Positions 1,893 to 27,499 of a stretch of DNA of 64,000 bases are shown in pieces. The notes under the pieces are model-generated. The model was not told where the DNA came from. It was given only the letters and a program-made list of their open reading frames with translations, and made no database searches. Source of the DNA: a virus; IMG/VR virus record IMGVR_UViG_3300012359_000028, positions 18,433 to 82,432 of that record. One strand, written 5' to 3'. Position 1 is the stretch's first letter. The number at the start of each line of letters is the position of its first letter. Both the position numbers and the translations under genes were made by a program.

Positions 1893-4003
1893 TGGCTGTC
1901 AACATTGTAAATAAAGACCTTCAGGATTTGCAGTTTCAAGAAGGACGCCCGACGCAATATACGCCGGTGACATTTCGTCCTACGCGGCCACTTTTGCCAT
2001 TTACGATTATTCCGGGTCCTAAAGAAGTTAGTAGCATTCAGATTATTAAAAATACGTTGTCAGTAGCCTCCACTCCTGCGGACACGGATTTGTTCTTGTT
2101 GTTTCGAGGAACATGGCAATCGTTCATTGCTTACAGTGTGAACGATGTTGTGGTTCAAAATCTTAGCACGTATGTGGCTATTCAAGGTAGTGTAGGGTTG
2201 CGCCCAGATCAAAATCCTTTGAATTGGACAATTTTGGGAGAAAATCTAGTTTTTAGTTCCAATGTTTTACTTTTTGATGGGCATAAACTGAATTTCAGTA
2301 CAGCCGGTAGTAGTCCTGTAATTGGTTCCTTGACTCCTTCTGCTCCGAATGATCTTGCATTTCTTGCCCTGAGTCAACGTGAGACAGACCTAGATTCTTC
2401 ATGGGTAAAATTATATACCAGCGGAGGAGCGGTAGCGGTTGCTATTAAAGCATTGCCGACTGCCGCACCCTTAGCAACCACCCTGACGAATACAGGATTT
2501 CCATGGGGATCGAACTTGTTATTTTTCAAGGGCGGTTTCCCAACACTGACTGGAAGTATAACGTCCGTACAGATCATTAGCAATGTTGTGACTTGCCAAT
2601 GTGTGAATGCATTTATAGTTGGGACTCAAATCATAGTCAATGGATTGGCGGGCGCTAATTTTTTGAACGGTACCCAGGCCCAAATCACCGCCGTGACTGC
2701 GAGTTCATTCAGTTTTGCTTTTACGCACGCGAACTATGGCCCGGCTGCTGATAATGGAACAGTCACGTGGCTGCCTTATTTTCAGATGGTGTCAGCAAGT
2801 TTCCCTGGAACTAACAATAGCAATACGACCGATCATCTCATATTTCCAAACCCAGTTAAATCAGGTAGCCTTCTGGTTTTTGTCGGCATCACGGGAGACA
2901 ATAATGCAGTGGCATCCCTGGTTTCAATTACAGATACGGTTGGGAATACATGGGTGCCCTATGGAGATAGTCACTTCGGGTGTGGTGCCTCAGTAGGTTA
3001 TTGTCAGTCATCGAATTCTGGCACCGTTGATATGGCTTGCTTTGGCACATGGTCTACGCCGTCTGATGTAGGCATAGCTTTTGAATTTCCAGTGGCTATT
3101 ATACAGAGTTGGGAACCTTATGATGTAGTTGAATTTCGTGGCTCAATGTTTGTATGCTTGCGCGAGACGGCCACGGATGCGTTTAGTGATCCTACATCTT
3201 GGGCTTTAATCGGCCCTGGTGTGGGGTCTGTTGATATTCTTTCAGCAAATTATTTGGCTATTTCTACTGATTCCGGCCGATTGCTTTCATTCAATTCCAG
3301 TTCTGCGGTCACATTGACATTGCCGAATCCAGTTTCAGCACCGCCTTCGGGCTCTACAGAAACAGGATGGATGATTTTTGTTGAAAATATAGGAACGGGC
3401 GTACTCACAATTTCGAACAACACTCGGACAATTGACGGTGTGGCCGGAAATTTAACGTTGGGTCAGAATCAGGGTGTTGTTATTTTTGCCGATGCGACTG
3501 GGAACTATAAAACTTACCATGGCATGAATTCAATTGTGGTGCCAAACATTTTCACGGTTACAGTTCCAAATGGATCGGGCCAGATAACAATTGGATTAGC
3601 AACGCAATCTGCAAATACCTTTTGGAGAGGCCCGAGCAGCGGTGCCCCCGCGCAACCGGTATTTGGGCCTATCGTTGCCGGGGATATTCCGTCATCGGCG
3701 TTACCTCCGCTTGCATTGACGGTTGTTGTTTTGACGCAGGCAACGCACACGCTCAGTGGGACTCTTCTTATAAATGGACAGCGTCCACCCGCTGGTGTAT
3801 ATCGACTGAGTGCTAATTTCTTTTTACAGGCCAATCCGAGCGCGGGAACCCTGGCAGTCAGTTTTGGATATAACGATGGAACGGCTGCACGAACTGATTC
3901 ACCGGCATCTATGGATACTTCTGCTTTGAATCTGGGCGAGCATGACATAGTGATTGTTTCCGATGGCATTCACGACATCACTTGGTCAATGACGCTGGTA
4001 TAA
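1892..4003 (+). CDS. Tail fibre/adhesin with carbohydrate-binding-like modules
   Basis: 703 aa, S/T/G-rich. Two CBM5/12-like motifs (GTWQSFIAYSVNDVV...PLNW; WEPYDVVEFRGSMFVC...PTSW). Confidence 0.6.
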   Translation: MAVNIVNKDLQDLQFQEGRPTQYTPVTFRPTRPLLPFTIIPGPKEVSSIQIIKNTLSVASTPADTDLFLLFRGTWQSFIAYSVNDVVVQNLSTYVAIQGSVGLRPDQNPLNWTILGENLVFSSNVLLFDGHKLNFSTAGSSPVIGSLTPSAPNDLAFLALSQRETDLDSSWVKLYTSGGAVAVAIKALPTAAPLATTLTNTGFPWGSNLLFFKGGFPTLTGSITSVQIISNVVTCQCVNAFIVGTQIIVNGLAGANFLNGTQAQITAVTASSFSFAFTHANYGPAADNGTVTWLPYFQMVSASFPGTNNSNTTDHLIFPNPVKSGSLLVFVGITGDNNAVASLVSITDTVGNTWVPYGDSHFGCGASVGYCQSSNSGTVDMACFGTWSTPSDVGIAFEFPVAIIQSWEPYDVVEFRGSMFVCLRETATDAFSDPTSWALIGPGVGSVDILSANYLAISTDSGRLLSFNSSSAVTLTLPNPVSAPPSGSTETGWMIFVENIGTGVLTISNNTRTIDGVAGNLTLGQNQGVVIFADATGNYKTYHGMNSIVVPNIFTVTVPNGSGQITIGLATQSANTFWRGPSSGAPAQPVFGPIVAGDIPSSALPPLALTVVVLTQATHTLSGTLLINGQRPPAGVYRLSANFFLQANPSAGTLAVSFGYNDGTAARTDSPASMDTSALNLGEHDIVIVSDGIHDITWSMTLV

Positions 4004-4012
4004 AGGAAGAGC

Positions 4013-5374
4013 ATGAGTCGCGTTGAAGATGATCTTCGGACGAAGACCTTAGAAGTAGACGGTACGGCGTTACCTCTGGTCCTGATTAGGAGTGCTGCTT
4101 CTCATGCGCAGATCAATATAGATGCCGCAGTCGGGTTTAACTCAGTCCATGAGTTCTTGGCTGGTGGTGTGCCTTTGTGGGCCTACGGTAATCTAGGGTC
4201 TGATAATAGCTTCGTTCTTATCGATAAGAATGGCGTCACGCGATTCAAGATAACTTTGAACGGCGACTTTCAGCACCTTGGCGGTAATGTTTCTGTAGCT
4301 GGTGGGAGTATGAACGCACTCACCGGCTTTCAGCAAAATAGCGGAGCGATTTCGGGACATGTTCTTCGAGGAAATGGAACTAATTTTGTTGACGCAGCAT
4401 TGGCAGCGGCAGATTTGAGTAATGGAGTAACTGGTTCTGGTGCTGTTGTTCTGGCAACATCTCCTTCGTTATTGGGTTCTCCTGTAGCGCCAACACAAGC
4501 CGCTGGTGATAATACCACTAAGATTGCTACTGATGCCTTTGTTACAACCGCTATCAATAACGCGGTTGCCGGGGTGAATCCTGCTGTTGCGGTACAGGCG
4601 GCTACAACTCAAGCAAGTGACACCTCTGGCTTTACATACAATAACGGCGTTTCAGGTATCGGCGCGACTCTCATGGGCTCCGTGAATACCGCCGTAACGG
4701 TTGATGGTTTTACGTTTACTGGTTTAGGGCAACGGTTACTGGTCAAGAATGACACACAATCACCATCTGGAGCATTTAATGGCGTCTATTATGTTACACA
4801 ACTTCAGACTGTGTTGCTACCTCCAGTTTTGACTCGTGCTCTAGATTATGACATGCCATCGGATATCAACAACACCGGGGCGATTCCGGTGGTTAACGGT
4901 TCCGTGAATGCACTCACGAGTTGGTTACTAACTTCAACAGTCAATACGGTTGGCACTGATCCACTTACTTATGCTAAATTTTCTACCGGCCCGGTTTCAA
5001 TCATCGGTATTGATAGTCTTGCATTGGGCGCGGCGGTCACGTCTACACTTCTCTATGCCGTGCCTGCCAACGGTGCAGGGTTATATCGCGTTCTTTGGTG
5101 TGCAAAAGTCACCAGAATCGCCACGACATCATCAATCTTGGGAGGCTCTGCTGGTTTTCAGATTGGGTATACCGATGCTGATGACTCCGTAGTAGTGACC
5201 ACACTAGCCAACCCGACTGGAAATGCAAACGGTAACACCACCGGAGTGCAAATTTCTGGCGTATTTGTCATAAACGCCAAGGCCAGCACGAACGTCAACT
5301 ATCAGATGGATTACACCAGCGTCGGAGCAACGTCGATGCAGTATAGTCTTCATGTTAGACTTGAGAAACTCTAA
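4013..5374 (+). CDS. Tail fibre protein
   Basis: Tail-fibre repeat PVAPTQAAGDNTTKIATDAFV and the common phage fibre motif VDG...GQRLLVKN...NGVYYVT. Confidence 0.7.
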   Translation: MSRVEDDLRTKTLEVDGTALPLVLIRSAASHAQINIDAAVGFNSVHEFLAGGVPLWAYGNLGSDNSFVLIDKNGVTRFKITLNGDFQHLGGNVSVAGGSMNALTGFQQNSGAISGHVLRGNGTNFVDAALAAADLSNGVTGSGAVVLATSPSLLGSPVAPTQAAGDNTTKIATDAFVTTAINNAVAGVNPAVAVQAATTQASDTSGFTYNNGVSGIGATLMGSVNTAVTVDGFTFTGLGQRLLVKNDTQSPSGAFNGVYYVTQLQTVLLPPVLTRALDYDMPSDINNTGAIPVVNGSVNALTSWLLTSTVNTVGTDPLTYAKFSTGPVSIIGIDSLALGAAVTSTLLYAVPANGAGLYRVLWCAKVTRIATTSSILGGSAGFQIGYTDADDSVVVTTLANPTGNANGNTTGVQISGVFVINAKASTNVNYQMDYTSVGATSMQYSLHVRLEKL

Positions 5375-5383
5375 GGAAATTAA

Positions 5384-7795
5384 ATGGCTCTTCCGATCAA
5401 AGTCAATGGGTGGACTAGTTCTCCTACCAACGTAGCGAGCACGTCCAATACGGTTACCTTTAGTCCGGGTGCAAATCATGCGCTTGTAGTGTGGATATTC
5501 AGTACCGCTGCCGTATCGATCATTTCTGACGGGACCAACACTTTTTACAATGTTCAAGGCGCGCTAACCGGGGGCTTGAACGTCGCGCTATACACAACAG
5601 GTCCGCGTAGTTCAAAGGCAGGAACTAATCTTACGATCACGGTCACTTTTGCGTCATCTTGCCAAAGTTCGATAGCCGTCACGGAGTGGTCAGGTGTCGT
5701 GGCTTTTGGGGGTAATGGCTCTCAGCAAGGAACGAGCACAACCCCCACGTATAACATTCAGTCCACGACTAACAACAATAACGTTATCGAGTGCGGATTT
5801 GGAGTCATAGGAACTCAGACTTGGAGTGCTACCGGAAGCACGACGCTTGATCTTCAAGAACAAGGGGCTTCTGGAGGAGCGACTCCTGGATTTGGCGTGA
5901 TGTACAACTCATCACCCACGCCTGCGGCTGTCGGCGTTACGGGAAGTATCTCATCTTCAGGAACGTGGATTGGAATAGGAATTGAATATCGTTCTGAAGG
6001 TATCGCGGTATCACTAGGGGGAACGAGCAGTTCGGACACCACGTCCAGCACCACTAGAACTATAGGTTCGGCGCATATCGTAGCGGATGCAACGGTCATC
6101 ATCTCCTGTGTGGCGGGTGGTGGGGGCGGCGGGCATATCACCAACGTGACCGACACACTTGGAAATATCTACGCCCCGTTAGCGCCGTATGCATTTAACA
6201 CAGCATCAGACGTTATAGATATGTGGGGATGTTTGCAGGCGTCTAAAGGCGGCATAACAACCATCACAATTACATTAAGTGCAGCTTCAACAAGTCATGC
6301 TGCCTTTCAAGAATATACTGGTGTGACGTGCTTCGGCGCGAATAATGTCGAGATTAACACCTTAGCATCGCTTAGCCTCAGCCAAACGACGGTCGATAAC
6401 AACAATTTTGTCGTGTTTGCAGGCGGCGCGCAAGGTACCTCTGACTATACGGTAACATCCGGCACGGCTCGGTGGCATGTGCCTGGGGCAAGTTCAACAG
6501 TCCCCGGTATCCTAATAATGGATAATATGTCGGCATCACCGGCATCGGTTACTGGTACCGCAACGATTACGTCCAGCGCTCTTGAAGGTTTGCTCTCTGT
6601 TGAGTTGCGAACAGGCGGGACCTCTTGGTCCATAGTTAATAAGGGTGGGCCTTTTACGCCCAATAGTGGAGTGCCGGTCACTCTGGGTTTTACGCCTACT
6701 TCGGGTAATCTACTGATTGCAGCAATTCTACTGTCCTCCTATCAAGCAGATATCTTGAAAATCATTGATAACGGAGTCGGTGGTGGTAGTGTTTGGAAAC
6801 CAGCCGGTGATGGGAAAAGTGTTACAGCGCACACCGATGCGGTGACGAACGCAGGCTCAACTATCTGTTTCGCACAAGCTAAGCCCGGCATCACGATCTT
6901 AACGTTTACTACAACGGATGGTACTCAAGTTTCTTCGGTTGAGATTTATGAGGTTTCAGGCTTGAAGAATCAGGTTGCTGATGTTTTTTCAGGTACATCC
7001 AGCGCTACCGGCAATGGGACTTTATATCCCTCCGGGAAGGTATTTACCCCCAAAATTGGGGAGTTCATAGTTAACACGATTTTTTCTGCCCAATCGCTAA
7101 ATAGTATTGATAGTGATTTTCTGGTTGATGTGAGCGGAACGAAAGCATTTGCGCACAGTGCCATCAACTTTGGATTACCTCGTATCTACAACGCAACCTG
7201 GACTTCCGTCTCGAACAGTCAGCCGTATTGTTCCTCCTCGGCGGCATTTGCGCCGGGATCGGGTACGCCATCACAGGACCCGCAGCAACAACTTTTGCTT
7301 CCTTTTCCTGTGCCGATAACAGAACTGGTATATCCCCTTCAAATGGGCGCGGGCGATAACGGATTATTTTGCGCGGTGTTCACCGCGCCATTCGATATGC
7401 TGCTCGGGAAGGCAACAATCGAAGTGACGACGACTATTCCTTCAAGTACAGGTTTCGTTGGAATCTATTCGTCTAATGGAAACACCCTCATTACCGAATG
7501 TCGCTTTGATACGTCGATTATGGGAAAGCAGACGGTAACGCCGCAGCATGGGGTAGGTATCGATAATCTTATAGCGGGTACCACTTATTGGTTTGTGACT
7601 GGGAACACGAGCAACCTGGTTCGGTGTCAAGGTGTAGCGGCTGTGAGTGGTGAGCACTTCCTATCAGTTTTCAATGCTAATCGGATTCATGCTGGCTTTT
7701 CGACCAATGTAATTGCATCCGGTGCTCTCCCTGCGACGCTTGGTCCGGTAATAGATACAATCTACGTTTCCCCTTTAGTGCTTTTCGAATCATAA
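5384..7795 (+). CDS. Large beta-rich virion/adhesin protein
   Basis: 803 aa, S/T/G-rich, with repeated ~200-aa modules. Lies in the structural operon. Confidence 0.55.
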   Translation: MALPIKVNGWTSSPTNVASTSNTVTFSPGANHALVVWIFSTAAVSIISDGTNTFYNVQGALTGGLNVALYTTGPRSSKAGTNLTITVTFASSCQSSIAVTEWSGVVAFGGNGSQQGTSTTPTYNIQSTTNNNNVIECGFGVIGTQTWSATGSTTLDLQEQGASGGATPGFGVMYNSSPTPAAVGVTGSISSSGTWIGIGIEYRSEGIAVSLGGTSSSDTTSSTTRTIGSAHIVADATVIISCVAGGGGGGHITNVTDTLGNIYAPLAPYAFNTASDVIDMWGCLQASKGGITTITITLSAASTSHAAFQEYTGVTCFGANNVEINTLASLSLSQTTVDNNNFVVFAGGAQGTSDYTVTSGTARWHVPGASSTVPGILIMDNMSASPASVTGTATITSSALEGLLSVELRTGGTSWSIVNKGGPFTPNSGVPVTLGFTPTSGNLLIAAILLSSYQADILKIIDNGVGGGSVWKPAGDGKSVTAHTDAVTNAGSTICFAQAKPGITILTFTTTDGTQVSSVEIYEVSGLKNQVADVFSGTSSATGNGTLYPSGKVFTPKIGEFIVNTIFSAQSLNSIDSDFLVDVSGTKAFAHSAINFGLPRIYNATWTSVSNSQPYCSSSAAFAPGSGTPSQDPQQQLLLPFPVPITELVYPLQMGAGDNGLFCAVFTAPFDMLLGKATIEVTTTIPSSTGFVGIYSSNGNTLITECRFDTSIMGKQTVTPQHGVGIDNLIAGTTYWFVTGNTSNLVRCQGVAAVSGEHFLSVFNANRIHAGFSTNVIASGALPATLGPVIDTIYVSPLVLFES

Positions 7796-18181: not shown

Positions 18182-18607
18182 TCATGGCCGGGTAGGACCG
18201 CCTTCGAGTATTTCCCTATGATGAGTCAGGGTAACCCAACCACCACCAGGGAAAATTTCCTGCCAGTAATTGGCCCAGGGGCCTCGAAAAGAAAGGACCC
18301 ATGTGTTTCCGGCGCTCTCTACTTTGTGATAGTTCTCACGCTCTGTGAAAATAGGCTTGAAACTGGGTCGGTAAACAGTCTTTATGGTTATGTCATCTAA
18401 TCTATATGGATTGATGAGACGGTTTTCGGTCAGTTTTCCGCGTAGCACCCAGGAGATGCTATTGAATGCATGCGAATGGTATGCTTCCCGTGAGCCGTCC
18501 TTGAAATGAAGCAGGACAATCGAGAACAATTTTTTCCATTCAATCAACCAGTAGCCCCAGACTCGTGACTCAGGCCCGCCGTCCTTCATCTTCGAGAAGA
18601 TTTTCAT
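18182..18607 (-). CDS. Cupin-fold protein
   Basis: YHSHAF...WVLRGKLTE and YHKV...WVLSFRGP cupin metal-binding motifs. Confidence 0.6.
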   Translation of the reverse strand: MKIFSKMKDGGPESRVWGYWLIEWKKLFSIVLLHFKDGSREAYHSHAFNSISWVLRGKLTENRLINPYRLDDITIKTVYRPSFKPIFTERENYHKVESAGNTWVLSFRGPWANYWQEIFPGGGWVTLTHHREILEGGPTRP

Positions 18608-20077: not shown

Positions 20078-20417
20078 TGATTACCTCCCTTAAGAGTTTC
20101 TCACGCTCTTTTTGAAGTTCGATTCCTCGTTCCCACAACCGATTCCATTCAGCAATGCCCCAGACACTATCATTGAATGTGAATTCCATTCGAGACATAG
20201 CAGCTTCAATCCATTCAATATCGATAGCATCAAGACGTTTACGTTGTGTTGGACTTAGCATTATCATTCCTTTCGACAACAGAGGATTGAAGATCAAGGG
20301 CGTAGTCCACAAACTGTACATCAATCCATTTGCCGGATGGATGCACACTGCGAACGGTGCCCTTGACCAGAACAGAGTCTCCGCGTTGCAGTTCTTTTGC
20401 TTTGGCCGGAGTCATTG

Positions 20418-20654
20418 CTATGCCTTTCGGTTTTTCTTGGGCTTTCTAGTGACAACACGCAAATTTTCCGAGTCAACGTACCAGTGGCCGGTACCGTCGA
20501 TTTCTCCACCATGACCTTCTTTCCACCGAGGAAAGAAAATTAGGGCAGCACCATTTTCATCGATAGATATAACTTTCCCAATCCGACCAGCAACTTCTGT
20601 TGAATCGCCAGTACCGTTTTTTATAACTCTGACCTGAGTTCCGATTTTAAGCAT
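20418..20654 (-). CDS. Small SH3/KOW-like protein
   Basis: LKIGTQVRV...GRIGKVI pattern. Confidence 0.45.
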   Translation of the reverse strand: MLKIGTQVRVIKNGTGDSTEVAGRIGKVISIDENGAALIFFPRWKEGHGGEIDGTGHWYVDSENLRVVTRKPKKNRKA

Positions 20655-20937
20655 TACGCACCTTCCGGCCGATTTTGCGAGCCATGACGAACCGCGTCGG
20701 AGTGATACCGAGCCAACGAATGATCTTCTTACTATTGGCGCGGCTGAACGTATGGCAGCCTAGATTTAACCTGCCGTTTTCCATGTAAACGGGGATTTGA
20801 TATGCGAGGCTCAAATCCGAAACGTAATTGAGATTGAGGTCATAGGTGATATGGTCGGTTTCCAGATACTTCAAAAGAGACGCCCTGGTTCCATTACGGG
20901 TAGCATATCGCTCGCCATCCGTGTTACGAGTTTTCAA
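20647..20937 (-). CDS. Hypothetical protein
   Basis: ORF overlapping the next gene in the - strand operon. Confidence 0.4.
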   Translation of the reverse strand: MKTRNTDGERYATRNGTRASLLKYLETDHITYDLNLNYVSDLSLAYQIPVYMENGRLNLGCHTFSRANSKKIIRWLGITPTRFVMARKIGRKVRNA

Positions 20938-20998
20938 AAACCTAAGTACATCACCATCTACGTCGGGTATTTAACTTCATTTTCAGTCTCCTTTATGA

Positions 20999-21409
20999 TC
21001 AGTCATTTTCAGGTCGTGCTAATTCACCGTATACTACAGTTGGCTCCGATTGTCCATCAAAAACTTCTTCTTTGATACTCCACCTTCCGCCTCGTGCTGG
21101 ATTCGCAGCAATCCATCGGGCAGCACTAGGCCGAGTCCTGCGAACAATTCCAGTCGATGTCGGAGGTCCGAAATCGTTTTCAAAATTCGGTTCATACATA
21201 ATGCGGTACTGCTTTTTCTTCAGTGGCTCCGGCTTCTTGACTACGAATCCATTCGAAGCTGCCATCGCATCGAGGAACAGATTCAATTCATCGCCGTCTG
21301 CCTGAAATGTTACAACACGCCCAATATCCGTTGGGGTAGGTTCGCCAATATACCACTGTCGCCAACGAATTTTCCCAAGAGGTGTCGCCCTCATTTGAAT
21401 TGCAAGCAT
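20999..21409 (-). CDS. Hypothetical protein
   Basis: GGAGG RBS; 136 aa. Confidence 0.5.
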   Translation of the reverse strand: MLAIQMRATPLGKIRWRQWYIGEPTPTDIGRVVTFQADGDELNLFLDAMAASNGFVVKKPEPLKKKQYRIMYEPNFENDFGPPTSTGIVRRTRPSAARWIAANPARGGRWSIKEEVFDGQSEPTVVYGELARPEND

Positions 21410-21505
21410 TAGTATCCTCCGCGATTCTTCAATCTTTCTTAAGAGGCTTGCTTATGGCAAGCAACAAAATCAATAGCGCGAACACACCAATTCCGATAAG
21501 AGTTC

Positions 21506-22402
21506 TCATTGTGGCAATTCGAACCCGAGTCCGACGCGCTCAGACCATTCACGTCGCTCGTCGGTTCTTGAAATCCATTTCACATAGCGCTGATGCACGT
21601 CTTTTGCCGCATGGCCTGCCCAAAAGTAATCCAGTTCAGTCGGAGTGCTCTTCACCGCAACCTGAGTCAGTCTAAAACGCCGGAAAGCATGGAAGCCGGT
21701 GCTCGGGATGAGCCTGTCGAGACGTTTACGCGCCGCCCCCTCCCGACTGGTAATCAGAAAACCGTTTGCTGGAATCACTTTGAGCAGAAATTCATTCAAT
21801 GACGGGCACAAATCGACGATCCTGCGCCCGGCTGCCGTCTTTACAGGCCCCAGGTCGCCCGCTTCATGCCGTTGAACATCAACCGTGATCGTCCGATTGG
21901 ACGGGTTCCAGTAGTTACCGGGGCCGTTTGGAAGAGTATGTACCGCTAAAGCCTCACCGATGCGGAGCCCGGAGCCCGCTAGCAAGCCCCAGAGTAGCCT
22001 ATCATCGGGAGACCCCTCTAGAAACGCCTCCTGTAGCGTTTTATCGGCTATCACAGGGGTGTTTTGATCGGCCGGAGACAGTTTGGGAAGGTCCAGGAAC
22101 GACTTATTCCAGGTCCGAGGGTAGATTTGATTGCCATTTTGGTCTACGGCGGAGGCTATAACCCCCTTAAAAACGTTGAAGATACCCTTGACCGTGCTGG
22201 CGGCCAGTTTGTCGCTGATCGGACTAAAAAACACTTTGGCAGCGGCATTATCAAGGTCTAACAACGCCCTGGAGCCCATTTGGGGTAGCAAATGAGCGTC
22301 CAGATAGGACTGATAGGCGTCCAGGGTGCCGGAACGCCGAGGTTTGCGGTTCATTCTGAGCCCGCGCATGTACTCTATCGATTGATCAGCGAATGTTGTC
22401 AT
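21506..22402 (-). CDS. int: Tyrosine recombinase/integrase
   Basis: Catalytic residues present: GLRIGE (R), KT (K), GFHAFRR (HxxR), AGH, QRY (Y). Confidence 0.9.
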   Translation of the reverse strand: MTTFADQSIEYMRGLRMNRKPRRSGTLDAYQSYLDAHLLPQMGSRALLDLDNAAAKVFFSPISDKLAASTVKGIFNVFKGVIASAVDQNGNQIYPRTWNKSFLDLPKLSPADQNTPVIADKTLQEAFLEGSPDDRLLWGLLAGSGLRIGEALAVHTLPNGPGNYWNPSNRTITVDVQRHEAGDLGPVKTAAGRRIVDLCPSLNEFLLKVIPANGFLITSREGAARKRLDRLIPSTGFHAFRRFRLTQVAVKSTPTELDYFWAGHAAKDVHQRYVKWISRTDERREWSERVGLGFELPQ

Positions 22403-22408
22403 GCCCCA

Positions 22409-22437
22409 ATCCTACCGAAAATGAAATGTCCTGTCAA
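22409..22437 (-). promoter_or_regulatory. Sigma70 promoter, leaderless integrase transcript
   Basis: TTGACA-17 nt-TAGGAT, then 6 nt to ATG; no SD. Confidence 0.7.
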
Positions 22438-22526
22438 GTCCTATTTTCGGGAATTATCCACTTGAGTCCCTCGATTTCGGCCCTTTCAACCTCAATGCCT
22501 ATCATATACCGTTGAATTGAATAACT

Positions 22527-22961
22527 TTATTCTTCAAATTCCGAAAGATATTCTCCGACTTCTTTGATAGTTTCTCTCAAAACTTTCATTTCTTTAGGAC
22601 ACATCTTAACCCAACCGGACCAATCTTCTTCTACCCTCTCGATAGCAGTTCTTATGCTTTCTAGACGAGTGGTAAGGGCACCAATTATATCGGCGTTAGT
22701 TTTTGCCCGGACCGGGCGGGCAGGCTTTAGCCCCTCCGCTTCAAGATGAGCCTGAATCCAGCGATAGGCATTCTGCCTCGGGATATTCAGGTCGCCCCAA
22801 ATTTTAGTTATCGGAACGTGAACTTCTCGAAGTTTTTCTTGCCAGTCGTAGCATTTTCGACCGAAGTCTAGACACCGTTTTTCAGACTTCTGACAATCAT
22901 CCCATGCTACTTGCAAATCCTTTTTTGCCGCCGCTACAACTTGTTCCGCATCCTTACTCAT
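22527..22961 (-). CDS. IS passenger: HTH/coiled-coil protein
   Basis: WGDLNIPRQNAYRWI is HTH-like; ATGA overlap with the upstream gene. Confidence 0.5.
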   Translation of the reverse strand: MSKDAEQVVAAAKKDLQVAWDDCQKSEKRCLDFGRKCYDWQEKLREVHVPITKIWGDLNIPRQNAYRWIQAHLEAEGLKPARPVRAKTNADIIGALTTRLESIRTAIERVEEDWSGWVKMCPKEMKVLRETIKEVGEYLSEFEE

Positions 22962-24178
22962 GCGGCCTCCTTGCCCACAAATTCGTGACTGTAACAAATT
23001 CTTTTACTATCCCCATGATAATCACTAAAGAGTGCTTTATGACCCTCTTCTTTAGCGGCTTTGTCTCTCTTTGTCTTATCACTTATATCCAGTCGCTCTT
23101 TACGATATTTGCAGGTGGGTATCCACCCCGAGTTTTTCTTGTCTCTGTAACCCCCGAAGCGAACATGTGCTGTTTTTGAAAAATATCTTTTTCCCTGGTC
23201 AAGATAGAATTGGGCGATAGTGTCCGAAATTCTTGGTCCGATTCCTAACCCCTGAAAGTCAGGTAATACTACAGTGCGGTGTTCTCGATATGCCTTGCGT
23301 TCGTCCGACCCCCTTTGGAATTTGAAGTTCTTACATTTACACCCTTTACTGACCGGCGTTTTCCCACAGTCCTTATCTACATGCCCGTGTCCGCAATCCG
23401 CACAATTCCGTCCACCTATCGGTTGTGCTATACTAGAAACGAAACCGACTATTGTTTCCGCCTGTTCCCCAAACTGAGCAGTTGCCAAATAGGAATGGCA
23501 CGACTGATTCAGATCGGGAGTCAAATAGTGATGACTCGCAAACATGGGCCAGATACTACGTTGGCACGGATAGAGTCGGAGTTTGATTTTTGGCCGCCGA
23601 AGTGACCTCCCATCGTGCAAAATTCCTGTCACCGTATCAAAATACCAGTCGGGACGCAACCATTCTAAAATATCATAGTGGCAGGAAGCGAAAACCAACC
23701 CATGAAAATTCTGATTATCGACATAACGACGTACGGCAACCGACGCAGCCTTTGCTACGTTCCTATCAATCACCGATGTATATTCGTCTATGACCGCTCC
23801 ATTCTCCAGTTTACGAGCAAGGTTTGCCCGAAACTGCTCGCCGTTAGATAAAACATGAAACGGTTTGCACCATGAGGGGACGGAGTTAAGCCCCACCGCC
23901 ATTAAGCGATCTATGGCTTCAGCCGGAGTCGAAAAATGGGAGACAATCGCTTTTGTGTCGCTCCATTCTGGTTGGGCTTCCGTTCCGAATTGTCTCAGAA
24001 GCAAAGTTTTTCCGCTTCCGCTCGGGCCTAGAATCAAGCCTATTTTGAAGTCCGACGGCACTTCTGGCTTTTCCCAACCTTCAAAGACGGACTCTCCTAT
24101 GAAAGCATAATCTAATGCTTTGGCAACTTCATCGGTAAACGTATCAGTCTTTACCTTAATTTTGTAGAGTGGTCTCAT
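22958..24178 (-). CDS. IS passenger: ABC-type ATPase fused to GNAT acetyltransferase
   Basis: Walker A GPSGSGKT, signature LSNGEQFR, Walker B VIDE, H-loop SCH. C-terminal HHYL and RTVVLPDFQGLGIG (GNAT motif A). Confidence 0.85.
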   Translation of the reverse strand: MRPLYKIKVKTDTFTDEVAKALDYAFIGESVFEGWEKPEVPSDFKIGLILGPSGSGKTLLLRQFGTEAQPEWSDTKAIVSHFSTPAEAIDRLMAVGLNSVPSWCKPFHVLSNGEQFRANLARKLENGAVIDEYTSVIDRNVAKAASVAVRRYVDNQNFHGLVFASCHYDILEWLRPDWYFDTVTGILHDGRSLRRPKIKLRLYPCQRSIWPMFASHHYLTPDLNQSCHSYLATAQFGEQAETIVGFVSSIAQPIGGRNCADCGHGHVDKDCGKTPVSKGCKCKNFKFQRGSDERKAYREHRTVVLPDFQGLGIGPRISDTIAQFYLDQGKRYFSKTAHVRFGGYRDKKNSGWIPTCKYRKERLDISDKTKRDKAAKEEGHKALFSDYHGDSKRICYSHEFVGKEAA

Positions 24179-24725
24179 ATGCTACCTCTTTTGAAAATAT
24201 CCGATGAGCAAGAGCCTCTAATTCTTCTGCGGCACGAATCATACCTTCCGCCTGAGCACGATAAGCATCTGCATCCCCGAACAAGTCACTGGCGTCGGTT
24301 GCTAGGAAGTACCCTCCGTCTAGTGATCGGACGGAACAAATTGGAATGTCTTTTTCGGCAACCAAATATGCCTTGGCAAAGCGAAGTTGCCGACGATTCG
24401 CTTCGCTATCCTTAAACCCCATCGCTAGTAAGACATCCTTAACTAGCATTACGGACGCTTTCCCTTGTCGAAGAACAGTTGGTAATTTTTCAATATAATC
24501 TTGACGGGCAATAAATTCTTCGCCTGTTCGCTTATCTCTCCAAACAATTTGCAATGGCTTCTGCTGAGGAGCGGCTCTTTCGACGGTTTGAATTTGCTCT
24601 GTACGTATGCCTGGCCATGCGGCGAGGAATTTGATTTGAGCATCTTTTTCATCGGCACCTTCAAAGGGCCGAGTTATCGACTTTCCAAGTGTAGTGGAGT
24701 GATAGGTGATATTGAATGACCCCAT
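24156..24725 (-). CDS. IS passenger: putative winged-HTH protein
   Basis: RRQLR...L...IPICS...GGYFLA pattern typical of phage wHTH proteins. Confidence 0.5.
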   Translation of the reverse strand: MGSFNITYHSTTLGKSITRPFEGADEKDAQIKFLAAWPGIRTEQIQTVERAAPQQKPLQIVWRDKRTGEEFIARQDYIEKLPTVLRQGKASVMLVKDVLLAMGFKDSEANRRQLRFAKAYLVAEKDIPICSVRSLDGGYFLATDASDLFGDADAYRAQAEGMIRAAEELEALAHRIFSKEVAYETTLQN

Positions 24726-25255
24726 TTTCCAATAGTCTCCTTTGTAAGTTGCTCATATGTAATTCTCTTTCCTACAACAACATCCACGAAACTATCCAAT
24801 CTCTCGAAAGTATGCCGCTGCACTCGGCCCGCATTGAGCCGAAATGTAAATTCATTCACATAGCGTCCGAGATGCTTCTTGCTGGCATGATGATAGACCC
24901 CATGCAATCCCCTCTTCATCACTGCCCAAACACTCTCAATTGAATTTGTGTGGACATCGCCACGAACATATTCTCCAGTGATGTGCTTCACGGATTCGTG
25001 CTCAAACCCCTCTCGTTTCAAAGCAACGTAACTTCCAAAATCGTCGGTCATGATTCGAGAACCTGCCGCCACGTTCTTGTGAATCGCTGCTCGCAACTCC
25101 CGACCGCCCGTGCTTTGGATCACTTGAGCCACGACATTCCCGCCACGTTCCCGCAACCCGATGACGGCTGCTTTCTCTGACCGTTCTCTCGGCTTATGGA
25201 TTCGGTCCCACATATGCCGACTATCCTCTCTTCCGCTCAAATAAGTCTCATCCAC
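24674..25255 (-). pseudogene. IS1595-family transposase, N-terminally deleted (DDE domain only)
   Basis: VDETY, MTDD, HTNSIES...KRG..GVYH..SKKHL.RY..EF.FRLN motifs. Begins directly at the inverted repeat and lacks the Zn-ribbon and HTH. Confidence 0.85.
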
Positions 25256-25275
25256 GAGTCAAGTGGATAGTTCCC

Positions 25276-25860
25276 CTATTTTCCACCCGTCGTGCCTTCC
25301 TCGATTTCTTTCGCAACAGCATCGAGATTACGGAATTGATCATCCTTATGCGCCGCTTCGGTAAAATTAATTTTTCCGTCAACATAGCCAACAAAAATCT
25401 GAATACGCGCCGCACGGATTGCAGCACGGTCAACGAAAGTAGGTGTGACTGTTTGCTTTGTACCGACGCGAATGTGCTTCGTATATTTTCTCTTCGGTGT
25501 TACAGTAATTGTAGCTCCCTTCTGTGCTTGTTCGGCAACATAGGAGCCGACTTTTTGAGATGCAAGGGATACTGCATGCTGGCCGGGTCGAAGCACGACA
25601 GTTTCGCCGACATGATTCTCAACGTGATATTCAGTTTTTCCCGTTACTACGCCGCCGTTCCCGCTGGCGGCTCCTGCACCGGCTCCATGAACGTGCGGAA
25701 ATTGTCCCGTTGTAGGGTCCAGGTCGATCACGCCGTCAGATACCGGGGTAAAGGTTACCGTTGCTGTCGGAGTTGGGGTCTCTTCTGTCTTCCCACCGTG
25801 CTTTTCAGGAAGTTCTACTCCTTGTGATGCTACTGCTGTTTCAACTTTCTTTTTACGCAT
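25276..25860 (-). CDS. Hypothetical protein
   Basis: AGGAG RBS; its TAG stop lies inside the IS target duplication. Confidence 0.55.
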   Translation of the reverse strand: MRKKKVETAVASQGVELPEKHGGKTEETPTPTATVTFTPVSDGVIDLDPTTGQFPHVHGAGAGAASGNGGVVTGKTEYHVENHVGETVVLRPGQHAVSLASQKVGSYVAEQAQKGATITVTPKRKYTKHIRVGTKQTVTPTFVDRAAIRAARIQIFVGYVDGKINFTEAAHKDDQFRNLDAVAKEIEEGTTGGK

Positions 25861-25868
25861 GATTTCTC

Positions 25869-26099
25869 CTATTCGGATTGAGATGATTTCTTCGTTCGGG
25901 GCCGATATCCGCCGCGTTTTGATTTCGATTTGACGACGGTGACGTGCTCGACCTGCTCGATTTTCACTTCGACACCTGCTGCTTTCAACGCATCAAATTC
26001 CTTGCGGGCATTGGGATAGACAGTTCGAATACGATGGAATGTATCGGAATTATCTTGAAGCTGACTCACTAGATTTAACAACTGTTCGAGATTCTCCAT
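25869..26099 (-). CDS. Hypothetical protein
   Basis: AGGAG RBS; basic C-terminus. Confidence 0.5.
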   Translation of the reverse strand: MENLEQLLNLVSQLQDNSDTFHRIRTVYPNARKEFDALKAAGVEVKIEQVEHVTVVKSKSKRGGYRPRTKKSSQSE

Positions 26100-26247
26100 T
26101 GTTTTCTCCTAACTTTGAAATTCGTCCCAAATGGGTTGAAACCAGTCCTTAAATGATATGGACTCTATCGGATTTACGTCCTTAACGTAAGGCCAACTGA
26201 GATCACTGCAAATTTCATTTCGTCGTGAAATTTTTTCGTTCATATGT

Positions 26248-26652
26248 TCATTCATTGCTCATCTCCTGAATGTCGAATTCGCCGAATGGCAGTCGAGTCG
26301 CGCCGGGTAGTATTGTGTTCATCCAAAATGCTCCCGGCTCATTGCAAGAGTGGATTACAATAACCCGTTGGGACCGTCGCGTCGTCAGTCGGCCATTCAG
26401 GAAATCGACAACTGGTATCGAATTGATAGTCGAATTTTTCACATTTCCCGGCCCGAGATCGAAGTCCAGGAAAATAGCATCAAACATCTCTGGAACCATC
26501 ACTCGTAAATGGTCAACCGCTAGATCAGGGTCTGCCTGATGGTAGACAATCTCATGCGGCATTTTTTCGAGAAACCATTTGATGCGCTCTTCATTATCCT
26601 CGACGATATAGACGCGACCGCCCTTTCGAATTTGAATAACTGGTTTCGTCAT
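26248..26652 (-). CDS. Cyclic-phosphate-processing receiver-like domain protein
   Basis: IVEDNEER...IFLDFDLG...IHSCNEPGA..M matches the phage stand-alone receiver pattern LDHDLG/IHSxNxxG. Confidence 0.7.
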   Translation of the reverse strand: MTKPVIQIRKGGRVYIVEDNEERIKWFLEKMPHEIVYHQADPDLAVDHLRVMVPEMFDAIFLDFDLGPGNVKNSTINSIPVVDFLNGRLTTRRSQRVIVIHSCNEPGAFWMNTILPGATRLPFGEFDIQEMSNE

Positions 26653-26930
26653 TTGTTCATCTCATGTTTGGTAAGGGGTCGTACTTGTGGTTTGTACCAA
26701 TAACCATCAGTTGTCTGGATGGCCGTGTCATCAATTCTCTGTATTTTTCCGTAGCGATTACGTGGCTGCAACGGACCCTTTGGCAGACAAATTACTTGCC
26801 CTACCCAAAATTTTGATCTGGATTTAGATGGCATTAAACTAACTCCTCCATGATGCCGAGGACTTCGGCAGTGATCAGAATGCCAGCAGCTATGGGAGCA
26901 ATGTATGCCAAAGCACCATATCCGACAATT

Positions 26931-27356
26931 CTAATCAGACTCTTTCCGAGCGATATTAAAAGATGCTTCTCGGGGTTTGGGCTCTGTTGCTTGGGCAGAG
27001 TTTCCTTTTCCGACATTGAGTTCCTCCAATTGATTGACAAGATCACGCGCCAAAGTTCTAATTTCTGTTCCTTCAGCACCATCACGGATAAGCCGAAATG
27101 CTTTGATGGAGTCCGCAAGAATTTCGCGGAGCCTTCGATTTTCTAGAACAAACTTTTTATTCGATTCCCAAAGATTGTGTCGAGCCTTTTTGACCCACTC
27201 AACACAGTAATTGGGGTCTCTGGCAAATTCGCTCCCACCAGGAGTACAGTCATTTAGTGCTCGACGCCAACGATCACGATCCTTCTCCATGGTATGAAGA
27301 TCATCCCATGCTTGTGCTAACTGCGGGTTGACGAGAGTATCTCCGGGAACGCTCAT
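26931..27356 (-). CDS. Hypothetical protein
   Basis: TPGGSEF..DP..C motif; ATGA coupling with the upstream gene. Confidence 0.5.
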   Translation of the reverse strand: MSVPGDTLVNPQLAQAWDDLHTMEKDRDRWRRALNDCTPGGSEFARDPNYCVEWVKKARHNLWESNKKFVLENRRLREILADSIKAFRLIRDGAEGTEIRTLARDLVNQLEELNVGKGNSAQATEPKPREASFNIARKESD

Positions 27357-27499
27357 GCTTCTCCGCCGTCGTCAAAATCTTCATCAAATCCTTCAAACGG
27401 TTCCGGCTCGTAGGGAGGCGCAGATATTGCCAGAACTTTCTTTTTCGCCTCGCGAGTTTTCACCGTGGATTTCTTCTTTGCTTTCTTTTTCGCTGCCAT
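27353..27499 (-). CDS. Small protein with basic N-terminus and acidic C-terminus (48 aa, not in ORF track)
   Basis: AGGAGG RBS; MAAKKKAKKKS...FDEDFDDGGEA*. Confidence 0.55.
   Translation of the reverse strand: MAAKKKAKKKSTVKTREAKKKVLAISAPPYEPEPFEGFDEDFDDGGEA

Follow-up and report, generated by a model that had tools for sequence, protein, structure and literature searches.

A truncated IS1595-family transporter element with a three-gene cargo beside an integrase promoter in a soil phage

Insertion sequences (IS) of the ISNwi1 group are listed in the ISfinder table with ends of the type ggnnatTAT, 8-bp target duplications, passenger genes and lengths of 1.75-4.75 kb. This group, also named 'ISNwi1+', reportedly belongs to the transporter IS of the IS1595 family discussed by Siguier, Gagnevin and Chandler in 2009. 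Transposable elements of the miniature inverted-repeat kind (MITEs) and mobile insertion cassettes are non-autonomous IS derivatives that have both ends and no working transposase, and they depend on a helper. The name transporter IS (tIS) for insertion sequences that carry passenger genes is used in PMC7986276, which cites the 2009 paper, and PMC9330008 also defines it. Two further systems are close in behavior: according to Guerillot et al. 2014 (PMC3942029), the TnGBS integrative and conjugative elements (ICEs) and the IS of the ISLre2/ISKra4 group have Mutator-like DDE transposases and insert, in a set orientation, 15-17 bp upstream of sigma-A -35 boxes; and elements of the IS1202 family (PMC10132070) land in one orientation, at a distance of 5 bp from the XerC side of dif/pdif sites. 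Phages are thought to tolerate insertion sequences poorly (PMC3429520). Here we analyze an IS1595-type element with a truncated transposase gene and three cargo genes, which lies in a 64,000-nucleotide stretch of a soil phage (IMG/VR record IMGVR_UViG_3300012359_000028, positions 18,433 to 82,432; this whole stretch is hereafter called the window).

The virus record to which the window belongs is 82,432 bp long, with an estimated completeness of 65%. The window codes for a phage-type DNA polymerase, a helicase and a primase. The element is the 2,827-bp segment 22449-25275. We consider it likely to be a non-autonomous derivative of a transporter IS, docked by transposition at a promoter junction and carrying a module that probably modifies DNA. 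Its parts and the flanking duplication are the following:

22441-22448, CTATTTTC on the + strand, GAAAATAG on the - strand: target-site duplication, copy at the cargo end, read directly
22449-22470, + strand: terminal inverted repeat of the cargo end (right repeat in the orientation of the transposase), 22 nt, matrix score 31.1
22527-22961, - strand: third cargo gene, about 144 aa from the ATG at 22961 (156 aa from the TTG at 22997), a small viral protein
22958-24178, - strand: second cargo gene, 406 aa, ABC-type ATPase and GNAT, phrog_11143 with E 8.3e-97, predicted model available
24156-24725, - strand: first cargo gene, 189 aa, no Pfam match, phrog_2113 with E 1.8e-5
24674-25255, - strand: 5'-truncated IS1595 transposase gene, 193 codons, no internal stops
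25256-25275, - strand: terminal inverted repeat of the transposase end (left repeat), outer 20 of 22 nt kept, matrix score 23.2
25276-25283, no strand assigned: second copy of the target-site duplication, which holds the TAG that ends the upstream gene (25276-25860, - strand)

Positions 22449-22468 read GGGAATTATCCACTTGAGTC, and the reverse complement of 25256-25275 reads GGGAACTATCCACTTGACTC; 18 of the 20 bases agree, and this pair ranks first among 118 inverted pairs in the interval 22300-25400. The ends of the element, GGGAATTAT and GGGAACTAT, start with GGGAA(T/C)TAT, and the cargo-end repeat is identical at 21 of 22 positions to the ends of a related element at another locus (L004, described below). 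We built a weight matrix from 34 ends of related elements, leaving out the divergent loci L064, L067 and L082. At a score of at least 15 it finds exactly two sites in the window, which are the two ends of the element, and none in five shuffles. The octamer CTATTTTC at 22441-22448 recurs without change at 25276-25283. The preliminary description of this DNA had reported the 18/20 repeats and the exact 8-bp duplication, and both were confirmed by this reading; its further claim, that transposase and cargo had been delivered together by transposition, agrees with the finding that repeats and duplication bracket them as one unit. A 13-nt inverted match between 22477-22489 and 24660-24672 might have been a vestige of an earlier end, but we rejected this because a match of that kind is within chance for 3 kb.

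The transposase open reading frame (ORF) begins with a GTG right behind the repeat and reads (V)DETY. It matches the Pfam profile PF12762 (DDE_Tnp_IS1595) over positions 8-153 of 153 (E 1.7e-38, 132 bits with a cut-off of 27) and the profile NF033547 (transpos_IS1595; E 1.1e-32, 113.7 bits with a cut-off of 75). Among the best 120 of 2,415 relatives, the nearest protein is P0122, which is full length (303 aa) and 81% identical. The remnant aligns with residues 136-308 of the 310-aa transposase of L004 at 73% identity; thus, about the first 135 residues are lost, and the Zn ribbon (PF12760) and the helix-turn-helix (HTH) region are missing, in line with the earlier observation that the gene starts at the VDETY motif directly after the repeat. 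The Zn ribbon is present in the transposases of L004 and L025, and judging from these alignments its absence here reflects a deletion, rather than membership of another family. Compared to the L004 element, the window element lacks about 427 bp, from position 21 of the 22-nt repeat to the codon before VDET. Besides the Zn ribbon and HTH region, the missing stretch takes in the -10 box of the transposase promoter, the -35 box (TTGACT) of which sits inside the repeat. The residues invariant in five relatives are retained, among them D2, D71 and E107 (numbering of the remnant), which we take to be the catalytic triad. The remnant is presumably inactive. At the deletion junction (25249-25269, - strand) there is a 7-bp hairpin, in which ATCCAC of the repeat pairs with GTGGAT, the Val-Asp codons of VDET; this hairpin appears in the terminator scan, and the full-length relatives have GTGGAC at the Val-Asp codons.

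Because the record is a metagenomic assembly, the truncation could be an artefact, a point that the preliminary description had itself raised. Thirteen soil-metagenome runs contain the stretch, and 10 of the 13 hold at least half of the sampled words. Logan contigs, which come from a different assembler, reproduce the truncation with no differences in runs from 2017 (X1, a 17,420-bp contig spanning 21000-26197) and 2019 (X4, a 4,298-bp contig spanning 21870-26167). These are the only runs whose listed contigs cross the junction at the transposase end; the junction at the cargo end is also crossed by a 176-bp contig of run X12. We regard the probability of an artefact as practically negligible. 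The contigs of run X4 also revealed a population variant at 26167-26223, in or beside a small gene (26109-26255): in run X4, one 68-bp contig with a depth of 3.5 has CTAA in place of 55 bp.

Searching IMG/VR with the repeat yielded two other phage contigs, and a profile search retrieved 57 viral loci with relatives of the transposase. Nineteen of these loci have both ends and a duplication matching at no fewer than 7 of 8 bases, with element lengths of 1.3-3.3 kb, and several further complete elements exist besides. At L004, perfect 22-nt repeats enclose 1,883 bp, flanked by the duplication TAAAATAG; the element contains a transposase that has the Zn ribbon as well as the DDE domain, and its cargo is a tRNA gene beside a gene of the Mom family (PF25680, E 5.4e-11). 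The tRNA gene inside that element (L004 11367-11439) scores 30.9 bits in Rfam (gathering threshold 29), and ARAGORN leaves it unnamed, with a four-letter anticodon and an unusual loop. Between the window element and four relatives, homology is confined to the transposase and the ends, and the cargo is unrelated. The preliminary description had called for a search for full-length elements with the same cargo: full-length relatives with the same ends and other cargo exist, and none with the same cargo was found at the 57 loci. In bacterial genomes, there are at least 578 relatives of the transposase, many of them in soil Acidobacteriota and Alphaproteobacteria, whereas only five of 50,697 GenBank phage records match it (best identity, 37%), and this small number contrasts with the dozens of complete copies in metagenomic phages. 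The repeat pattern also matched 16 loci in bacterial genomes; we discarded these as chance matches, given that about 17 are expected (18 fixed bases, 596 Gb) and that no transposase adjoins them.

Taken by its transposase profiles, its ends and the three ORFs inside its repeats, the element is a transporter IS of the IS1595 family with ISNwi1-type ends, as had been proposed. It shares with the ISNwi1 group (i) an IS1595 DDE transposase, with an N-terminal Zn ribbon in the full-length relatives, and 8-bp duplications; (ii) ends, GGGAA(T/C)TAT, that fit ggnnatTAT, and a size within the range of 1.75-4.75 kb; and (iii) passengers placed between the transposase gene and the far end. It differs in being phage-borne, in lacking the 5' third of the transposase gene, in the distance to the -35 box that its clade keeps, and in the DNA-modifying theme of the cargo. 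Our literature searches returned no paper that deals with phage-borne IS1595 elements, with their DNA-modification cargo or with docking at promoters by this family. The element belongs to a group seemingly undescribed in print, itself a variation on an already known kind of element, and the trio is a new cargo. With MITEs and mobile insertion cassettes, the element shares both ends and the lack of a working transposase, and its movement would need a helper; it differs from them in that two thirds of the transposase gene remain open and in having 2 kb of coding cargo.

The insertion site involves two features outside the element:

22409-22437, - strand: promoter-like site of the integrase gene, TTGACA-17-TAGGAT, 10/12, the best in 21400-26000
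21506-22402, - strand: integrase-like gene downstream of the element, phrog_1 integrase with E 7.4e-15

In the orientation of the transposase, the order is: gene stop in GAAAATAG, element, GAAAATAG GA CTTGACA-17-TAGGAT-6-ATG of the integrase. The TAG stop of the upstream gene (194 aa) is at 25278-25276, within the duplication, and the promoter begins two nucleotides and a C past the other copy; the preliminary description was accordingly right in placing the insertion between the upstream stop and the integrase -35 box with damage to neither. The element is oriented like the upstream gene and the integrase promoter, and TTGAC starts 11 nt past its end. The sites of L004 (TAAAATAG TC CTTGACA) and L035 (ATAAATAG TG CTTGACA) are built in the same order. 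To count this register, we used 71 ends with a matrix score of at least 22 from the 57 loci and the window, with 20,000 random positions in the same loci as the control. An outward-facing TTGAC lies 8-14 nt from the end in 11 of the 71 ends, compared to 156 of the 20,000 random positions (0.78%). The distance is exactly 11 nt for eight ends (the window, L030, L034, L035, L080 and three at L032). These eight span six contigs, since three come from one array at L032. The end at L080 has the opposite orientation, suggesting that the hexamer belongs to the target and is not a part of the element.

A quick maximum-likelihood tree, in which 25 of 73 bacterial rows were used and any row that contained stops or had an aligned length under 150 residues was dropped, places the window in a clade of nine (SH-aLRT, i.e., Shimodaira-Hasegawa-like approximate likelihood ratio test, 97). 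Within this clade, TTGAC is found at 11 nt in five members and at 13 nt in one; in two others, TTGATA or TTGCAG occupies the 11-nt position, and the ninth, on a contig of a Dormiibacterota metagenome-assembled genome, has none. The consensus of the clade's duplications is NAAAATAG. By these counts, the insertion at the junction of stop codon and -35 box is not luck; the lineage docks there. This reading replaces the former one, in which the site was merely harmless. Positions 13-19 of the repeat themselves hold CTTGAC(T/A); we therefore suspect that the DNA-binding domain that reads the ends may read the target, too. It should be noted that the single match of the motif AAATAG-N3-TTGACA in the window, at the occupied site, is in itself no more than chance would give, since 39 of 100 shuffles contain at least one.

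In its behavior, although not in its transposase, this clade resembles the TnGBS/ISLre2 elements. As Guerillot et al. 2014 describe the latter, both keep a fixed distance upstream of the -35 box, are mostly found in one orientation and leave the promoter and the neighboring genes intact. The TnGBS/ISLre2 transposase is Mutator-like (p-MULT) in the same account, whereas that of the window is of the IS1595 type. The window clade differs further in the 11 nt between end and TTGAC, in the 8-bp duplication with the consensus NAAAATAG, and in consisting of small cargo-bearing IS in phages, not ICEs. Similarly, the IS1202 lineage (PMC10132070) keeps a set distance and orientation with respect to a short functional site in the DNA; it is of another family, has another target and carries no cargo.

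Each insertion recreates the target beside the promoter and, therefore, stacking and decay at promoter sites are expected. The integrase of L032, 39% identical to that of the window, also lies behind IS1595 ends. Upstream of it, there is (i) a full element (3258-5063) with the duplication TTAAATAG; (ii) a promoter-gene unit closed by a weak end, followed by a transposase-less unit with both ends (5440-6093); and (iii) a promoter-gene unit closed by a solo end that abuts AAAATAAG GCTTGACAT and the integrase. Every junction of this array (5040-6440) has the form (A)AAATA(G/A)-NN-CTTGACAT. At two other loci (L025 3229-3248 and L037 5178-5229), ends abut with a single AT-rich spacer of 8 to 9 nt, which suggests repeated insertion at one spot. 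The window copy is one stage of this process of stacking and decay at promoter sites.

Such arrays raise the question of whether the window element is a chimera, i.e., whether successive insertions at a promoter hot spot were followed by deletion or recombination that joined the left repeat to the remainder of another element. The four further ends between the full element and the integrase homologue at L032, the end-to-end junctions of L025 and L037, the remaking of the target with each insertion and the two mismatches between the 20-nt repeats are all compatible with this. The window, however, has only two ends, one remnant and contiguous overlapping frames, so that nothing demands a chimera, and its result would be indistinguishable from a simple internal deletion; we consider this origin unlikely. 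Even less probable, in our assessment, is that the three genes have always been the phage's own, were at no time cargo and are caught between the remnants of two separate insertions. The ATPase-GNAT gene, as shown below, is an ordinary phage gene, a 58%-identical copy lies in a replication module without repeats (L002), and the segment has a GC content of about 46%, equal to that of the flanks. Against this stand the identical 8-mer on both sides of the whole unit, the tail of the transposase gene that enters the first cargo gene, leaving no phage DNA in between, and the arrangement in which the stop codon lies in one duplicated 8-mer and the other copy abuts the promoter, which is the pattern of a single insertion.

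In the preferred reading, the element would have entered the soil phage by one DDE transposition event into the 8-bp target GAAAATAG (- strand), which was duplicated. The transposase of the clade sets one element end at a distance of exactly 11 nt from TTGAC in a -35 box, and the element would thereby land between the upstream stop and the integrase promoter. The promoter scan of the element detected no strong internal promoter; transcription of the cargo genes probably continues from the phage operon upstream, and their translation is probably coupled. With the deletion, which measures about 0.43 kb, the transposase gene lost its Zn ribbon and HTH region as well as the promoter's -10 box, and the 193-codon remnant is not expected to bind its own ends, so that the element would move only if a related transposase were supplied.

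Whether the truncation came before or after arrival appears about evenly balanced. In the first case, the element came as a non-autonomous but mobile cassette, for which a full-length relative in a co-infecting phage or in the host supplied the transposase in trans. This scenario, to which we assign somewhat less than an even chance, is favored because the deletion stops precisely at the repeat, of which the outer 20 of 22 bases remain; mobility requires this, whereas for a random deletion it would be luck. The transposase-less unit with both ends at L032 is an example of such a structure, and helpers are common, considering the many transposase relatives in bacterial genomes. Conversely, a recent deletion in place is favored because the 193 codons are intact, although they would be useless to a cassette moved in trans, and because the kept left repeat is the weaker one (matrix score 23.2 vs. 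31.1); furthermore, searches with the ends and with the cargo found no second copy of the cassette. The earlier description of the element as stranded and immobilized is, consequently, unproven: both ends are kept, the unit at L032 retains both ends with no transposase of its own, and the window element may still be mobilizable.

Several observations weigh against the overall interpretation of the locus. No second copy of the element, and no full-length element with the same cargo, was found in the IMG/VR repeat search or at the loci of the relatives. The duplications of the clade share the consensus NAAAATAG, and the identical flanking 8-mers are, therefore, weaker proof of a single event than they would be at a random target. 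An empty site was not encountered: the exact 28-base pattern has no match in IMG/VR, and no contig of the soil runs joins across the element, although contigs hide rare variants. The flanks (20400-27400) have no match to GenBank phages by blastn, and the flanking genes are without relatives at useful identity; likewise, the integrase and the 189-aa protein, used as queries in viral contigs, found no relatives. The record itself may stem from the sample behind runs X1 and X4. The nearest transposase, at 81% identity, is too distant to date the deletion or to judge selection on the remnant. Concerning the cargo, the GNAT domain has no Mom-family (PF25680) match at E of 0.1 or below, and BLASTP to the Mom protein of L002 gives E of at least 2.2; the role in DNA modification is a published prediction for the family; and 5 of the 15 sister cargos scanned have no recognizable function (L033, L064, L067, L069 and L082).

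The cargo consists of three intact genes, which overlap as reported before. The transposase tail overlaps the first cargo gene (24156-24725) by 52 nt, this gene overlaps the second (22958-24178) by 23 nt, and the stop of the second overlaps the ATG of the last gene (22961) as ATGA. The assigned labels fared differently: the ABC-ATPase-GNAT fusion was borne out by a predicted model, whereas 'winged HTH' for the first protein and 'HTH/coiled-coil' for the third were not confirmed, with nothing significant in Pfam and weak leads in the Atlas. In the AlphaFold2 model of the 406-aa protein, built from 48 homologues (predicted local distance difference test, pLDDT, 86.5), residues 1-194 form an ABC nucleotide-binding domain according to the best Foldseek matches and VIA-align (Z 13.1), and residues 198-405 a GNAT domain (VIA-align Z 13.6 to 1y9k_A; 139 residues aligned, root-mean-square deviation 3.9). 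A Cys/His-rich insert in the GNAT half, at about 255-290, is modeled with low confidence. The protein has the Walker A motif GPSGSGKT and a signature-like LSNGEQ. The Atlas neighbors of both small proteins score 0.77-0.91 and are of mixed families or none. For the third gene, the nearest named Atlas clusters are DUF3102-like, and an HTH is weakly indicated; its 156-aa version matches a 167-aa protein of L002 (BLASTP E 8e-8), which has sub-threshold matches to HTH_23 and HTH_Tnp_1. Among 5.8 billion proteins, just one is homologous to the 189-aa protein, namely, P0121, at 48% identity.

The ATPase-GNAT protein has more than 5216 relatives, nearly all metagenomic, the closest being P0002-P0007 with 76-83% identity. 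In IMG/VR, there are 373 relatives; the 80 viral loci fetched from these (805 kb) contain no IS1595 ends or transposase, and we therefore regard the gene as an ordinary phage gene that was picked up by the element. By tblastn, the family is found in 76 GenBank phage records, and its neighbors are in keeping with a role in work on nucleic acids: a formyltransferase in phiE255, a primase and a helicase in a Nonlabens phage, and ParB-like, HNH, methyltransferase and terminase genes in the Gordonia phage AnClar. At L002, the copy in the replication module has Mom, a PD-(D/E)XK nuclease and a primase nearby. A second copy of the trio was not found by tblastn in the 57 viral and 80 bacterial transposase loci and the 80 ATPase-GNAT loci; in these loci, L002 alone pairs the ATPase-GNAT (58% identity) with a weak relative of the 156-aa protein. 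P0004, one of the closest ATPase-GNAT proteins, and P0121, the homologue of the 189-aa protein, probably lie together, as both are recorded on four contigs, the longest of 45,650 bp. No transposase with these figures is among the best 120 of 2,415 relatives, which gives a faint hint that the pair exists without this IS.

The ABC-ATPase-GNAT family has been the subject of a published prediction. Iyer et al. 2021 (PMC7824862) predict that the GNAT-ABC ATPase of Tenacibaculum phage pT24 acylates a DNA base, and our tblastn match (36% identity across 89% of the query; E 4e-58) lies in the same phage. The window protein shares with that system a phage-coded ABC-type ATPase fused to a GNAT domain, and the homology to pT24; it differs in being IS cargo, in its two small flanking genes and in the Cys/His-rich insert of the GNAT half. 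The same paper describes the Mom proteins of phage Mu and its relatives as enzymes with a GNAT fold, which act on adenine in the phage's DNA, and this modification shields the DNA against restriction. With the Mom family, the window protein shares the GNAT fold and the accessory position in a phage, and Mom-family genes are the cargo of L004 and L035; it differs in the missing Mom match and the fused ATPase.

The cargo of the sister elements points in the same direction. We scanned the main cargo ORFs in 15 of the 19 complete elements, leaving out L039, L045, L050 and L053, which have small ORFs only. Enzymes similar to DNA methyltransferases, to Mom/DruA or to PAPS (3'-phosphoadenosine 5'-phosphosulfate) reductases were found in nine. 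Methyltransferase-like cargo is present in five, with strong matches in L038 (N6_N4_Mtase, E 5e-29), L047 and L052 (phrog_757, E 8e-68 and 1e-65) and weak ones in L040 and L080; a GNAT of the Mom/DruA type is present in two, L030 and L035 (DruA E 1.5e-11, Mom E 1.5e-4); and two carry enzymes of the PAPS-reductase type, strongly matched in L056 and at the cut-off in L055. A single element, L048, carries an HNH nuclease. PAPS-reductase-type enzymes presumably belong with DNA modification and, counting these and the window, 10 of 16 elements appear to hold an enzyme of a DNA-modifying kind. The window's nearest clade holds a second multi-gene cargo, in the 3,278-bp element of L035 (3927-7204). 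It codes for three proteins: one of 185 aa without assigned function, one of 293 aa that resembles DruA/Mom, and one of 274 aa that matches ParB_N below the threshold.

We infer from these comparisons that the likeliest role of the module is the modification of phage DNA, blunting host restriction; the central ABC-ATPase-GNAT would acylate a base of the phage DNA. The module may, thus, benefit the phage, as the preliminary description had surmised, a suggestion backed by the cargo theme of the sister elements and by the published family prediction. A different function is possible, although we find it doubtful: the GNAT could acylate a protein or a small molecule (in host take-over, in a toxin-like activity or in exclusion), with the two small proteins as regulators. 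By fold, the GNAT half is indeed closest to N-acetyltransferases of proteins and small molecules (RimI, Naa50, AAC(6')), the Mom match is missing, and Iyer et al. 2021 also list phage GNATs with a predicted action on host proteins. Conversely, the same paper ascribes the ABC-coupled GNAT specifically to DNA base modification, the neighboring genes of the family members belong to DNA metabolism and DNA modification, and DNA-modifying enzymes were found in 9 of the 15 sister elements tested.

Beyond this locus, we tentatively propose, at only slightly below even probability, that this IS1595 clade, found mainly in phages of soil and wetland, is a promoter-docking delivery system that spreads mostly DNA-modifying (anti-restriction) cargo between unrelated phages. 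In such a system, the transposase would recognize a site like the inner half of its repeat, CTTGAC(T/A), which is also the -35 box of its own promoter. The cut would place the element end 11 nt from a phage -35 box, at a junction of stop codon and promoter, and usually co-oriented with the neighbors. Elements would stack and decay into arrays of promoters, genes and repeats, as upstream of the L032 integrase homologue, and the exchangeable slot would mostly hold DNA-modifying enzymes; here, these would be the ABC-ATPase-GNAT and its two partners. If promoter homing and cargo swapping are real, they would explain how phages gain orphan methyltransferases, Mom-like genes and other anti-restriction genes of this sort without damage to tightly packed genomes; this clade would represent a second, unrelated transposase family with promoter targeting, comparable with TnGBS; and the elements would provide a natural setting in which to study the uncharacterized ABC-ATPase-GNAT enzymes. 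The window alone yields a smaller gain, namely, a well-documented decayed member of the group with a new cargo trio.

Two minor observations concern the relatives. In many relatives (L039, L045, L053, L032 and L027 among them), a small basic ORF of about 48-79 aa comes right after the transposase stop or overlaps it, with a recurring ...VDVVL.YRP... pattern and a K-rich part; this ORF is absent from the window element, where the cargo starts instead. The element of L022 (G003:C1:4753-5676) carries a methyltransferase gene, the stop codon of which lies inside the right repeat, and its transposase gene is broken by one TAA.

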